Of a DNA stretch of 64,000 nucleotides, positions 41,855-61,857 are shown piece by piece. Position numbers and translations under genes: made by a program. Source of the stretch: Dendronephthya gigantea. Its lineage: Eukaryota. The stretch is from assembly GCF_004324835.1 (NCBI RefSeq), contig NW_021163311.1, positions 10,208-74,207 of the forward strand, in the 5' to 3' direction. Position 1 is the stretch's first letter. Every line of letters begins with the position of its first letter. The notes beneath the pieces were generated by a model that saw only the letters and a list, made by a program, of their open reading frames with translations, had not been told where the DNA came from and ran no database searches.

Positions 41855-42528
41855 GCCTGGCTTTATTAAAGTCTGTTTCAGCTCATTTGCATCAGGTCAG
41901 AGCATCAGAAGAGCGACGCCTTGACCTAGATCTAAATATTTTTAGTTGCTATAGGACTTTGCAGAGAAGATCGAATTTGCGGCTTTGCCCTTTGAGATTT
42001 CGCAATTTGCTTGTGGTATTCATATGATCATATCCAAACATTGCTTATCATTAAACAATCATATAATGCTTGTCGGACATGGAATTTACTGCATCACCTG
42101 AAAAGGTAGGTATAAGAACGGATAAAATTGGTCACGGGCAGCAATTTTAGCTGTGTTGTACCAATAATTTAAGTGTAATCTAAACCGACATTGCTTGCCG
42201 AATATTAATAGATTTCGGCGAATGCGGAATTATTCCTATTTCCTGAGATTTAACGTCTGACGTTTCAGAATTTGCTTACTAGTTCATTTTCAAAGATGCG
42301 GCAGTTGCTTCTGGTCTTTAGGGCTTATGTCATTTTTATCTTTATAAATATTAAACGCTTGCCTGATCTGCAAAAAAATTCAGTTGGGCCAATCATAATG
42401 CTTGTCTGACAAGGAATGTATTGCATCATCTGAAAAGGTAAGGGCGGCCCCCAGTGCATCTCAGTAAGCATTGCGCCGTTTCCATGTAGCTGAATGCATC
42501 CTATTTTTAGTCATTCTGCTGAAATACT

Positions 42529-42912
42529 ATGAAGAAATCATCTTTCCTAGCACATGGATTGACTATCCTGGTGGTCCTTTGCTGTGCCACCGAGGTAACC
42601 TGTTTCATAGGCAAAATTTTCAAGGAAATAGACAGAGCTCTTTGCAGATTCGATCGCCATGTTACTCGACCTTTTATCAAAGCCATCGGTCTTGTGAGGG
42701 TGAAGAAAACGTACAGACAGTTCAAAGAAGAAGTTAAACACAGCAGAGTTATTTTCTCGCCAAATTCATATCGTGTGGAGAAAATAAAACCGTGCGCTCA
42801 TGGACATCACGACATCGTTCAGGACAAGCGAGCGATTGAGATACAATTTCAAGATCAAGCCGTTACATTTCGTCACAAATACTGCAGAAAATGCGGACAG
42901 AATTTCTTCTAG
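42529..42912 (+). CDS. Cassette gene A, copy 1 (127 aa, short form): signal peptide plus cationic Cys-containing mature protein
   Basis: MKKSSFLAHGLTILVVLCCATEV signal, then ..RVKKTYRQFKEEVKHSRVIFSPNSYRVEKIKPCAHGHHD..YCRKCGQNFF*. Conserved in 5 copies and in paralogue A0. Confidence 0.7.
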   Translation: MKKSSFLAHGLTILVVLCCATEVTCFIGKIFKEIDRALCRFDRHVTRPFIKAIGLVRVKKTYRQFKEEVKHSRVIFSPNSYRVEKIKPCAHGHHDIVQDKRAIEIQFQDQAVTFRHKYCRKCGQNFF

Positions 42913-43281
42913 ACTCCAATAAAACCTTGCGTTATGCAGACAAATAGTTTTTCACGGACAATGCAAAGAACACATGTGATGTGAATGGCTTTAATTGAGC
43001 TTATTTTATTTTTAATAGACTATTATGTACTCGCTTTTTAAAATTTAATCATGATATTTGACTATTATATATGATTGACTATAACTTGATAATAGCATTA
43101 TAAAACGATGATTGAGTTAAATACTAAACTGATTTAGTGTGTTCATGAAGATTCGTCATGTGCGAGATATATATGTTATATAAACAACACACATCTTTCT
43201 AAATATATAACGTTTGTTGTCAATTGAAATACAATCTATGATGACAGTTTTAAAATCAGTGCAAAAGTGCGTTCGCTTGAT

Positions 43282-43625
43282 TTACCAGGGTTTTAATACT
43301 GGATAAAGTGCTGTGATCTTCTTCAGTTGATCTAATGTCATAAATATCATACCAGATGCTGCACCACATTTTGAACAGATAAGAACAGGGCTCTTGATGT
43401 ACAAATTGTTCGTTTCAGTCCTGGAACCACGGTCCGATTTCGAGGAAAGTGTGATTCCGAGAAGGCTTGATTTCCCCTTGTTTTCCCAAGTCACAGTGCT
43501 CCGAACGGAAATCGTCAGCCATCCAACGCCTCTTGGCTCGAAATTATGCGGTGGGCAGCTTGAAGCGGCGTGATCACAATCAGAACTGCTGAAAACAGTA
43601 TCTTAAAGTTCATTCTGTGAGTCAT
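43282..43625 (-). pseudogene. Cassette gene B, copy 1, frameshifted
   Basis: gaagcggcgtgatcac here against gaagcggctgtgatcac in the intact copies. This is a 1-nt deletion in the signal-peptide region. Confidence 0.5.
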
Positions 43626-43892
43626 TGCTTATGTTCACCGCTAGCTGTGGTTCACTGAGGTGTTTGCGTCAGAAACAGCGCGATCGTCAGCTATAGAATG
43701 GTCGTTGAACTCTTGAATTTATCTCGTTAATAACTCCGTATCTAAACAACAATCTCAACTTAACTTAAAGCTGTAGAGCCCCTGTCAATGCATCAATGCA
43801 TCAATGCGTCAGTCAGTGCCCTGCAGCCCCACGTGAATGTCAGAATACCCATTTGACAATTTTCCGAGTATTGACATTCCTTGGAGTTAATT

Positions 43893-59235: not shown

Positions 59236-59646
59236 ATGAAGAAATCATCTTTCCTAGCACATGGATTGACTATCCTGGTGGTCCTTTGCTGTGCCACCGA
59301 GGTAACCTGTTTCATAGACAAAATTTTTGATGCAATAGTGGATGATATTCTTCCTGATTTCGAACGCCATGTGATTCGACCTCTCATCGCTAAACCTCTG
59401 AAGGAAGTCGCCAAAGCCATCGGTCTTGTGAGGGTAAAGAAAACGTACAGACAGTTCAAAGAAGAAGTTAAACACAGCAGAGTTGTTTTCTCGCCAAATT
59501 CATATCGCGTGGAGAAAATAAAACCGTGCGCTCATGGACATCACGACATCGTTGAGGACAAGCGAGCGATTGAGATACAATTTCAAGATCAAGCCGTTTC
59601 ATTTAGTCACAAATACTGCGAAAAATGCGGACAGATTTTCTTCTAA
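59236..59646 (+). CDS. Cassette gene A, copy 5 (136 aa, long form)
   Basis: Intact. Confidence 0.7.
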   Translation: MKKSSFLAHGLTILVVLCCATEVTCFIDKIFDAIVDDILPDFERHVIRPLIAKPLKEVAKAIGLVRVKKTYRQFKEEVKHSRVVFSPNSYRVEKIKPCAHGHHDIVEDKRAIEIQFQDQAVSFSHKYCEKCGQIFF

Positions 59647-59991
59647 ACTACCATAGAACCTTGCGTTATGCAGACAAATAGTTTTTCACACATGAAAGAA
59701 CACATGCGATGTGCATGGCTTTAATTGAGCTTATTTTATTTTTAATAGACTATTATGTACTCTGCTTTTTAAAATTTAATCATGATATTTGACTATATTA
59801 TATATGATTGACTATAACTTGATAATAGCATTATAAGACGATGATTGAGTTAAATACTAAACTGATTTAGTGTGTTCATGAAGATTCGTCATGCATGTAC
59901 GAGATATATATGTTATATAAACATACACAATCTTTTCAAATATATAACGTTTCTCGTCGATTGAAAGACAACCATGATGATAGTTTTAAAA

Positions 59992-60372
59992 TCAGTGCAA
60001 AAGTGCGTTCGCTTGATCTAGCAGCGGTTTTAATACTGGATGAAGTGCTGTGATCTTCTTCAGTTGATCTAATGTCATAAATATCATACCAGATGCCGCA
60101 CCACATTTTGAACAGATAAGAACAGAGCTCTTGATGTACAAATCGTTCGTTATAGTCCTGGAACCACGATCCGATTTCGAGGAAAGTGTGATTCCGAGAA
60201 GGCTTGATTTCCCCTTGTTTTCCCAAGTTACAGTGCTCCGAACGGAAATCGTCAGCCATCCTACGCCTCTTGGCTCGAAATTATGCGGTGGGCAGCTTGA
60301 AGCGGCTGTGATCACAATCACAACTGCTGACAACAATATCTTAAAGTTCAGCGGCGACATTTTGCGAGTCAT
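59992..60372 (-). CDS. Cassette gene B, copy 5 (126 aa, diverged N-terminus)
   Basis: MTRKMSPLNFKILLSAVVIVITAASS.. The unit ends here. No C or D copy follows. Confidence 0.6.
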   Translation of the reverse strand: MTRKMSPLNFKILLSAVVIVITAASSCPPHNFEPRGVGWLTISVRSTVTWENKGKSSLLGITLSSKSDRGSRTITNDLYIKSSVLICSKCGAASGMIFMTLDQLKKITALHPVLKPLLDQANALLH

Positions 60373-61857
60373 TGCGTATCTTCACTGGAGGATAATTCTG
60401 CATGAGAAACAGCGATCGTTAGGCAAAGAATGATCGCTGAAACTCTTTGAATATATCTCTTTAATAACGCGGTACAGACGAATGATTACATACACAAACT
60501 TTATGGCCGTCTACACTGCATTAAGTATGCGTATTTACACGTGACTCATTAGACCATAAAATTTATGGTGCTCTTTAAAACCTGCGCGAGTTTACCTGCA
60601 CTCCCACACATGCATAGAGGGTTATATTTTACAATTTGTGATGGACAATTTCAACATCGCATATTTACTAATAAAAGTTTTCAAACCCAATGCAGGGGAA
60701 CCCGTTTGACTGCAAGCTCAACAAGCGTTGAATATATGACATTTGGGTCCGTTTAATATGTGACATTTGAAATGTCACATGCACTGTTTCCAAGGAATGG
60801 GCGGAGCGTCCATTTCTGCTTTGACATAGTTGCAGTGTTGTTGAAAGAAAGGGCTTTAAAAAACGTGCTTGTGTTAAAAGAAAGCGCTTTCTTTTAACTG
60901 ACTGTAGGATCGCCCTTTTGTATCATCGTATGTCTTTCCACATTTTAAAAAACCGCAAGTGTTTCGAATAAGTTTACATGCAAGATGCAGACCAAACCCG
61001 TGTGAATTTCAAAATTCAAATGTTATATTCTAAACGACCCAACCGATGCGTTGGGAACGCTTGTTATTTTGAAGTCAAACGGAATCCGCTGTATCTGCAA
61101 TCATAGCTAAATAAACCGCAATCATAGCTAACCAACATCATGGGGCACTGTTAACGGCAGCCGAAAGAGCTGTTGAGACCTACTTATTGAATTGTCAATT
61201 GTGTTTTTTGGGGGGCACCCTGTATATATTTGGTATGTATTCAGTTACAGCCAACATTGTCACTGAAACCGATATTCCATTCAAACAAGAATATCTAAAG
61301 AAAAGTATAGCGTGATTTGCATGTAGCTAGATACTTGTAGACAGACAAGAAAACTTGAAACAAAAATCAAACATGGCATCAAAAAGTGAACTGAAAGTCG
61401 TCTAAATAAATGAACTAGCTGGAAAGGCTTATATAATTTAGGAAAGCCCACCAACTCTCGATGTCAGTAAGGAATAGTAAAAATAGACTTAAATAGTCAT
61501 ATTTTAAATTCAAATAGAGTATTTCGTTAAGAATACAGCGATAAAACTATGTTTCCCGTGCTAGGCAGATGTAAATAACGATAAACTTGAATGCAGAGTT
61601 CTTGAAACACTCTAAAATACCAGTAATCTGTCTGTACCGAAATACAACAGAGCGGTTTGACCGTTTTTACCGAATAAAGGAAAGCGCCCTTAGTTAGACA
61701 AGAAGCTGACCTTTTAACAAACAGGTTCAACATTAGGTATTGAGTATCATCTCTCTTGAATGAGTCAACTTGAATATTATGCACTGAATATGTAGTTGTA
61801 AACAGTATCTTTGTATTAAGGTTAAAAACATTTAGTTTGCTTGTTGAATAAAACGAT

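Follow-up and report, generated by a model that had tools for sequence, protein, structure and literature searches.

A conserved cassette of four small signal-peptide-type gene families, tandemly amplified in Dendronephthya gigantea

Why should four short genes without described relatives be repeated together, as one block, in a coral genome? The question is raised by a stretch of 64,000 nucleotides of Dendronephthya gigantea (NCBI RefSeq assembly GCF_004324835.1, contig NW_021163311.1, positions 10,208 to 74,207 of the forward strand), called the window here, which carries a tandem array built from four small gene families, A, B, C and D. These are real protein-coding genes under purifying selection. 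The four families form a conserved microsyntenic cassette. Most often it is present once, but as a unit it has undergone at least two independent amplifications, in the window and in another contig, L015. They have been found so far only in coral-derived data and have no described relative. We favor, with somewhat better than even confidence, the reading that an old, conserved cluster of four intronless genes was tandemly amplified in this lineage and that its products act together as a secretory module.

The array is a head-to-tail tandem repeat. Self-BLAST gives a unit of 4.13-4.27 kb in about 4.4 copies, with offsets of 4132, 4269, 8289, 8425, 12451-12559 and 16714 bp and with 94.8-96.9% identity between whole units. 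This agrees with a first-pass annotation of the same DNA, which had described a unit of about 4.16 kb repeated about 4.4 times. The array is missing from the TRF output because the period limit of that program is 500 bp. Each unit encodes A(+), B(-), C(+) and D(-), all intronless, and the array holds five A, five B, four C and four D genes, 18 copies altogether. Counted from the ATG, the products are 127 or 136 amino acids (aa) long for A, 123 or 126 for B, 102 for C and 139 for D; the gene order and the range of 102-139 aa noted earlier match the open reading frame (ORF) data. A and B are convergent, as are C and D, and the divergent spacers measure 270 bp between B and C and about 970 bp between D and A. 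With high-identity head-to-tail units of the same gene content, the locus qualifies as a set of tandemly arrayed genes. The repeat had been placed at 42100-60400, which stands, but the gene families reach further on both sides, to a paralogue of A (A') and a paralogue of D (D') outside the array. D' matches the family profile at E 4e-46 and keeps the signal-peptide-like N-terminus and the C-x5-C motif.

The most basic alternative is that the ORFs arose by chance in non-coding repeats, and the differences between array units are indeed too few to be decisive on constraint in B and C. When 1.84 billion representatives were searched exhaustively with phmmer and a concatenated query, 42 relatives came up at E < 1e-3, all 60-184 aa long (about 18 A, 12 B, 3 C and 9 D). 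Computed from the DNA of the contigs that encode these relatives, the ratio of nonsynonymous to synonymous divergence (dN/dS) between window genes and orthologues is 0.10-0.28 for A, 0.09-0.18 for B, 0.14-0.26 for C and 0.27-0.49 for D. Frame, start, stop and Cys positions are kept at 23-70% aa identity, and the DNA beyond the ORFs is barely alignable. Paralogues within the window behave in the same way: at saturated dS, dN/dS is 0.13-0.18 for A against A' and 0.2-0.3 for D against D', with frame, signal-peptide-like N-terminus and Cys positions preserved in both pairs. Conservation of the DNA but not of the protein would have indicated non-coding repeats, as the first-pass annotation pointed out; the opposite was found. 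The chance-ORF explanation is refuted by the relatives, by their dN/dS values and by the conserved gene architecture, and we give it practically no credence. The idea that these are genuine small-protein genes with signal-peptide-like N-termini is supported by the same relatives and ratios and by the inspection of the N-termini.

The choice of search method matters for such short proteins. A word-indexed search had no hits either with the concatenated A+B+C+D query of 500 aa or with a chimeric alignment of four blocks and 21 rows, although known relatives were among those rows. Since the exhaustive search found 42 relatives, these negatives were prefilter false negatives and not absence, and an empty result of the word-indexed search is not reliable when the query is long or composite. 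As a positive control, a query from the neighboring E3-like genes described below showed that relatives of the source organism are present in the protein collections. Ten window proteins have no exact match in the protein collection. The 20 relatives (of 42) that were traced all come from ENA, Logan or JGI; none is functionally named, and two are labeled 'hypothetical protein'.

ORFs in all fetched loci were classified with hidden Markov models (HMMs) of the families, and the cassette families proved to be linked in ten further genomic contexts (Table 1). Linkage within a few kb persists across species with saturated synonymous sites. L014, L016 and L018, from related species, have a single cassette, and L015 has a tandem duplication of its own. 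L014 shares the 114-bp satellite of the window at 90-95% identity, which indicates that it derives from a close relative of the window organism. The closest A relative lies on L001, and the Tara sample behind that contig also yielded L022. The earlier proposal that the four genes form a functional unit is strongly reinforced by the linkage in ten contexts together with the independent co-duplication in L015. Two side observations concern the cassette borders. In three species a gene whose C-terminus is PARP4_MVP-ID-like flanks the cassette, in L002 (1-780), L015 (1109-1498) and L014 (5980-7354); the window has no such gene, and satellites adjoin its cassette. In three contigs the intact B gene is directly followed on its 3' side by one or two tandem partial copies derived from its last 44 codons.

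Table 1. Features of the window and arrangement of the cassette families in other contigs
Locus	Feature	Position	Strand	Basis or remark
Window	Tandem array, 4.4 units	42099-60468		self-BLAST, unit alignment
Window	A' (144 aa, ends ...NAVKDEL), outside array	40999-41433	-	tblastn 38% identity, E 2e-26
Window	A1 (127 aa, short form)	42529-42912	+	ORF, tblastn
Window	B1, two 1-bp deletions	43256-43625	-	disrupted
Window	C1, two 1-bp homopolymer deletions	43893-44199	+	disrupted
Window	D1 (139 aa)	45265-45684	-	
Window	A2, third sequence variant, frame broken inside variable region	46659-47062	+	disrupted
Window	B2 (123 aa)	47390-47761	-	
Window	C2 (102 aa)	48033-48341	+	
Window	D2 (139 aa)	49422-49841	-	
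Window	A3 (127 aa, short form)	50816-51199	+	
Window	B3, 1-bp deletion in G run	51546-51916	-	disrupted
Window	C3 (102 aa)	52188-52496	+	
Window	D3 (139 aa)	53587-54006	-	
Window	A4 (136 aa, long form)	54974-55384	+	
Window	B4 (123 aa)	55817-56188	-	
Window	C4 (102 aa, acidic)	56460-56768	+	
Window	D4 (139 aa)	57847-58266	-	
Window	A5 (136 aa, long form)	59236-59646	+	
Window	B5 (126 aa); array end about 100 bp past B5	59992-60372	-	
Window	D' (136 aa), about where a fifth D is expected	62221-62631	-	tblastn 31% identity, E 2e-13
L002 (8.4 kb)	B, D, A, C, A'			family HMMs
L004-L007	A, D-like, B			family HMMs
L008-L010	D-like<- A-> <-B, order as in window			family HMMs
L014, L016	B, D, C, A' on one strand			family HMMs
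L015	A'-B-D-C-A'-B-D-C			separate tandem duplication, period about 7.7 kb
L017	B and degraded A			family HMMs
L018	B, D, A, A, C within 5.3 kb			family HMMs
L020/L021	B, A, D			family HMMs
L022	D-> <-C, as in window			family HMMs
L004	B partial copies	10428-10728		
L007	B partial copies	7005-7305		
L005	B partial copies	10428-10616		

Dense, intronless genes in alternating orientation could also be the integrated cargo of a mobile element or virus. Reverse-transcriptase genes do occur near the cassette in L004-L007, and there is a weak, sub-threshold match to the zinc ribbon of baculovirus LEF-5. However, the ORFs of the unit include no transposase, integrase or capsid, and a search of a viral structure library gave no significant match. 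The flanking PARP4_MVP-ID-like gene is common to L002, L014 and L015, and the putative signal peptides and the endoplasmic reticulum (ER) tail discussed below point to host secretory biology. A mobile or viral origin is thus very improbable.

Identity among the array units is mosaic. The identity of units 1 and 3 rises to 99.4% in one 600-column block of their alignment, and in a different block that of units 4 and 5 reaches 98.1%; such a pattern fits unequal crossing-over combined with gene conversion. The head-to-tail units of 95-97% identity and the mosaic segments reaching 99.4% are shared with other tandem arrays that arise in this way; the difference is that the repeating unit here is a four-family cassette and not a single gene. 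Amplification of this kind need not be adaptive. The genes could be functional in single copy, and the array could be recent and neutral or mildly deleterious, with its extra copies decaying. Disruptions in 4 of the 18 copies (A2, B1, B3 and C1) are in line with this, as are the within-array dN/dS (omega) of about 0.95 for D and the pooled value of 0.47 for B, C and D, which reaches only p = 0.03. The surroundings are full of satellites and include a second tandem array, and the single cassettes of L014, L016 and L018 fit as well. On the other hand, 14 of the 18 copies are intact, and the breaks in B1, B3 and C1 are 1-bp deletions, nearly all in homopolymer runs, so that assembly error is possible; these three copies may be pseudogenes or long-read assembly errors. 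In addition, the cassette of L015 was duplicated independently, and B is near-invariant among the units (0.5% variable columns vs 5.3% in spacers). Purely neutral amplification therefore seems to us possible but on the whole unlikely.

Some smaller features of the unit were also recorded. Variation within the unit peaks in the spacer between A and B, where up to 57% of columns vary; an (AT)44 microsatellite lies in the A4-B4 spacer at 55643-55730. A 122-aa ORF runs antisense to each D on the plus strand (45269-45637, 49426-49794, 53591-53959 and 57851-58219), and these were treated as shadow ORFs. An AATAAA poly(A) signal occurs 6 nt past the A4 stop and 4 nt past the D4 stop. Rfam identified no RNA family in the window.

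What, then, do the four genes encode? All products begin with a basic region, followed by a hydrophobic stretch and small residues at -3/-1. The mature parts contain three or four Cys in A, three in B and two each in C and D. Mature net charge is +7 to +13 for A, +15 for A', +7 for B, -4 for C and -1 for D (isoelectric point 5.9). A had been described as cationic and C as acidic, and both descriptions stand; D, described as cationic, is not, and B is cationic instead. In B4 the putative signal peptide covers about residues 1-23; in the B family C24 and H27 are at least 90% conserved, and C84 and C87 are invariant. C has the invariant elements C49, C73, YDPKT and KYTGGC, and D has an invariant C-x5-C (C105, C111) within the motif GG...C-x5-C...NG, so that C and D each have one conserved Cys pair.

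The view that the products contain no known domain is borne out. Pfam gave nothing at E <= 0.001 for all A, B and D members and the window's C, sequence profile searches of the PDB were negative for A, B, C and D, and fold searches of structure libraries gave no significant match. Neither a profile nor a Cys-framework match was found to known cnidarian toxin, antimicrobial or SCRiP families, and a literature search found no occurrence of the conserved peptide motifs. The four genes had also been called unrelated, a description that needs some qualification. A C-x(2-4)-H ... C-x-K-C motif recurs in A and B, and an N-terminal motif in C and D, but neither pair is shown to be homologous by profile comparison. 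For A and B, the hhalign probability was 2.5% with shallow profiles and 49% with deeper ones, limited to the 13-residue knuckle; for C and D it was 12.5% and then 28%, limited to the N-terminal motif. MAFFT aligned B across both A knuckles, which is not a homology test.

The shared motif of A and B suggests a putative metal site. In A4, a putative signal peptide of about residues 1-25 is followed by a variable amphipathic region (26-60) and a conserved C-terminal domain (C-domain) with invariant C98, H103, C128 and C131. Across 18 sequences the conserved domain spans about 55 aa, with invariant Y65, V67, P72, C73, H78, C103, K105, C106, G107 and F110. The structure model of A has four strands in the C-domain with confidence (pLDDT) of 73-86, and a helical N-region at low confidence. 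The odd number of Cys and the invariant His, placed in two knuckle-like motifs, suggest a C-H-C-C metal site, and the C-domain may be zinc-ribbon-like. The C, H, C and C residues are invariant in the two knuckles of A; B has the same four-residue pattern in conserved form, with a first knuckle C-x2-H in the window's B. Zinc-ribbon and treble-clef mini-domains (TFIIS, the LEF-5 C-terminus, ribosomal S27ae and the MqsA N-domain) resemble A in that PC-x4-H and C-x-K-C-G knuckles flank beta strands. They are also the only weak sequence or fold matches of the cassette proteins, all below significance: Baculo_LEF5_C scored 15.2 bits against a cutoff of 24, the S27ae chains in the PDB matched at E 1.2-3, and no significant structural similarity to zinc ribbons was obtained. 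A differs from these domains in its first knuckle, which is C-x4-H and not CxxC, and in a lumenal or extracellular context instead of nucleic-acid binding.

The region between signal peptide and C-domain is where the A copies diverge. At least two A forms exist; between them the signal peptide is unchanged, whereas codons 26-60 have diverged by about 30% and contain in-frame indels. In codons 26-60 the proportions of synonymous and nonsynonymous differences are 0.33 (pS) and 0.27 (pN), against 0.089 and 0.027 in the rest of the gene, and pN/pS is 0.83. Since this ratio does not exceed 1 and synonymous sites are equally raised, we take the region as a record of long-standing variants preserved by the array, and not as proof of positive selection. 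In the A family it is proline-punctuated and amphipathic, with repeats such as KPVLKPVL (L014) and VxKPxERVV (L004). Net charge and hydrophobic moment of the N-region are +16 and 1.02 in A', +8 and 0.90 in A1, and +3 and 0.56 in the long form A4, so that A' and A1 are cationic and amphipathic and A4 is so more weakly. A conserved dibasic site at which the N-region could be cut from the C-domain is absent.

Upstream of A, a non-coding element of about 80-105 bp lies 200-300 bp before the start (42222-42340, 54672-54776 and 58935-59052). It matches Tara scaffolds at 74-80% (L001 218-324 and L022 1509-1591) and may be a promoter or an exon of the 5' untranslated region (5'-UTR). A possible 72-nt 5'-UTR intron (GGTAAGG...TTTTAG) is found immediately before the A4 ATG.

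A conserved signal peptide beside a diverged mature region is typical of antimicrobial peptide and toxin families. Host defense is one alternative, in line with the earlier suggestions, still speculative, of antimicrobial or effector peptides with binding partners or of a toxin with its chaperone. In this view A would be a cationic antimicrobial or effector peptide released from the cell, B, C and D would serve it as partners, as chaperones of a pro-domain-like kind or as co-effectors, and the array would be an immune expansion under diversifying pressure. The cationic, amphipathic N-regions of A and especially A', the invariant signal peptide next to a mature region with in-frame indels, the taxon restriction and the tandem amplification agree with this, and an expanded array of RING/TRAF zinc-finger/Kelch genes lies 9 kb away. 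However, the most cationic and apparently ancestral A form has an ER-retention tail and is ill-suited to be a secreted effector. The variable region shows equally elevated synonymous sites, the N-region of the A4 long form has a charge of +3, the C-domain is strongly constrained, and B, C and D have no antimicrobial-peptide-like features. An antimicrobial role for A appears plausible at most, and we doubt that defense explains the cassette as a whole.

Known peptide families give a similar picture. One comparison is with multigenic antimicrobial families of molluscs, such as the myticalins (PMC5577615, PMC12294457). Families of this kind combine a conserved signal peptide with a hypervariable mature peptide. 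The A genes resemble them in their invariant signal peptide, their diverged and indel-variable mature segment, their tandem multi-copy arrangement and their positive charge. The differences are that the variable segment of A is followed by a conserved Cys/His domain, that pN/pS is below 1, and that three further families are co-amplified. Among cnidarians, taxon-restricted secreted peptides include the arminins and periculins of Hydra along with other species-specific antimicrobial peptides (PMC10945409) and the SCRiPs of corals (PMC2652719, PMC10892658). The likeness lies in lineage-restricted small signal-peptide genes without known domains, often multi-copy, and in a cationic region as found in A and A'. 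In contrast, the four families here are tightly linked across deep divergence and are amplified together, the A-type ancestor ends in an ER-retention signal, and the cysteine arrangement, with three Cys plus a His or else one Cys pair, differs from that of SCRiPs.

The ER tail is the feature of the A family that says most about localization. A' ends in KDEL, and an xDEL/xQDL/xDKL ending is present in A' and in 10 of the 21 A-family proteins listed; a hydrophobic 10-mer within the first 40 aa was found in 15 of the 21. The KDEL receptor retrieves KDEL-tailed proteins to the ER, and the PROSITE pattern ER_TARGET for such C-termini is [KRHQSA][DENQ]EL. Most A relatives have such a tail, either KDEL, HDEL, RDEL or KQEL or one of the near-variants GDEL, NDEL, REDL and KQDL. 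In the linked clusters the A-type tails are KDEL in L004, KQEL in L014 and L015 and REDL in L016, and the sole A-type gene of the cassettes in L014, L015 and L016 carries such a tail. The array copies A1-A5 all end in ...CGQ[IN]FF followed by the stop and have no ER tetrapeptide. The tail-less ending ...CGQxF[FL] is common to the array copies, the A of L002 and the Tara protein P0121. Both tailed and tail-less A types occur in L002, as in the window, and P0123 in L002 is the orthologue of A'; this indicates that tail-less A is a distinct paralogue lineage that predates the amplification. Judged from these C-termini, the ancestral A-type protein was probably ER-resident and the derived tail-less A exported, and a KDEL-type ancestral tail argues against a simple secreted-peptide origin.

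An ER-resident A' invites comparison with cargo-specific ER escorts that have KDEL-like tails, such as RAP/LRPAP1 (-HNEL) and MESD (-REDL). The A' family has the same general layout of putative signal peptide, basic helical region and KDEL/HDEL/RDEL/KQEL/REDL tail, and A' is encoded beside potential secreted clients, a client relationship that is pure inference. The likeness does not extend to sequence or structure; A' is much smaller than these escorts, and the amplified A has no tail. In a speculative version of the model, the four families would make up an anthozoan secretory-pathway system of several components, new to science and long kept together as a cassette. A' would be its escort, retained in the ER, binding zinc and active on membranes, and B, C and D would be lumenal or secreted partners; in one octocoral lineage, loss of KDEL would have turned the escort into an exported cationic effector, A, and triggered the co-amplification. 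We regard this version as tentative and, taken in full, rather unlikely.

The products could instead be structural or cargo proteins of a specific cell type, for instance of the cnidocyst, gland-cell granules, mucus or the sclerite matrix, linked through a shared regulatory domain. The conserved linkage of unrelated small signal-peptide genes, their taxon restriction, the complementary charges (A and B basic, C acidic) and the disulfide-type Cys pairs of C and D can all be understood in this way. However, matrix and capsule proteins typically have low-complexity, Asp-rich, Gly/Pro-rich or collagen-like segments, which are lacking here, a KDEL-type tail on the ancestral A-type protein would be unexpected for an exported structural product, and no shared promoter motif was found. 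This explanation, too, we consider improbable, though it deserves mention.

The window has 35-39% GC and is satellite-rich. Positions 1-33329 hold a tandem array with a unit of about 5 kb and at least seven intronless genes with RING/U-box, Sina/TRAF zinc-finger, coiled-coil and Kelch regions, including a frameshift-split copy (15444-17074) and an N-terminally truncated copy (11241-12065). One of these E3-like proteins has more than 1,500 relatives, the best 70-76% identical; the named ones are all from the gorgonian Paramuricea clavata, and the rest are from large ENA contigs. These matches point to an octocoral as the host of the window. Adjacency to these genes had been thought suggestive, but the link is weak: elsewhere E3-like genes occur on the same large contigs, but not within 10 kb of the cassette. 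A satellite block at 33361-40211 contains repeats of 114 bp (x3.3), 77 bp (x13.8), 80 bp (x6.9), 138 bp (x19.8) and 14 bp (x10), and the 138-bp satellite is also present four times inside the E3-like array (24807-25362). An isolated ORF at 39636-39971(-) corresponds to residues about 7-121 of alanine-glyoxylate/serine-pyruvate aminotransferase (E 9e-27 to PDB 4cbs). With no further exons seen nearby, it represents a first exon or else a piece of a gene.

Our preferred reading, an old cluster that encodes a joint secretory module and was amplified in this lineage, can be stated as a sequence of steps. Each product would enter the ER by means of its N-terminal signal peptide. The KDEL/HDEL/RDEL/KQEL tail of the ancestral A-type protein, represented here by A', would bring that protein back to the ER. 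In the window's lineage the paralogue A presumably lost this tail and would hence be exported, and it is this tail-less A that was amplified along with B, C and D. The variable cationic amphipathic region of A likely binds membranes or polyanions, with the beta-rich domain serving as a putative metal site. A specialized secretory or defense cell would co-express A, B, C and D, and the four would form a module that works jointly, either inside the secretory lumen or once secreted. Amplification by unequal crossing-over would raise dosage and maintain several A variants, which is the weakest step.

Several points weigh against this reading. The signal peptides were judged by eye and with a Kyte-Doolittle heuristic, not with SignalP, and the structure model of D (pLDDT 45) was discarded as unusable. 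The orientation of the cassette genes varies among species, so that the linkage is not operon-like; strands alternate in the window, and even in L014, L015 and L016, where the genes lie on the same strand, the spacers are 0.4-4 kb. With regard to co-regulation, no upstream k-mer is shared by 28 promoters of the four families, the best 7-mer being 2.9-fold enriched. With regard to transcription, the short Logan and ENA contigs follow the genomic DNA colinearly, with no sign of splicing. The disrupted copies and the ratio near one for D mean that extra copies may be neutral or decaying. The coding status of the families, the conserved cassette, its independent co-duplication and the missing ER tail of the amplified A are shown by the sequences; ER entry, retention of A' against export of A, metal binding, membrane or polyanion binding and joint action are inferred.

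To our knowledge, stable clusters of co-working unrelated genes are rare in animal genomes. The four families described here are new and without described relatives; they have stayed adjacent across deep divergence, and at least two lineages have duplicated them, always as a whole set. A conserved, repeatedly co-amplified four-family cassette is an unusual form of lineage-restricted secreted gene cluster. Standard annotations seem to lack these short intronless genes, which points to a blind spot in cnidarian gene catalogues. The pair of KDEL-bearing and KDEL-less A proteins offers a natural experiment in relocalization from the ER to the outside. If A, B, C and D act together, corals would offer, in compact and tractable form, a secretory module specific to one lineage, with implications for their handling of microbes, the making of their secretions or the transport of special cargo.

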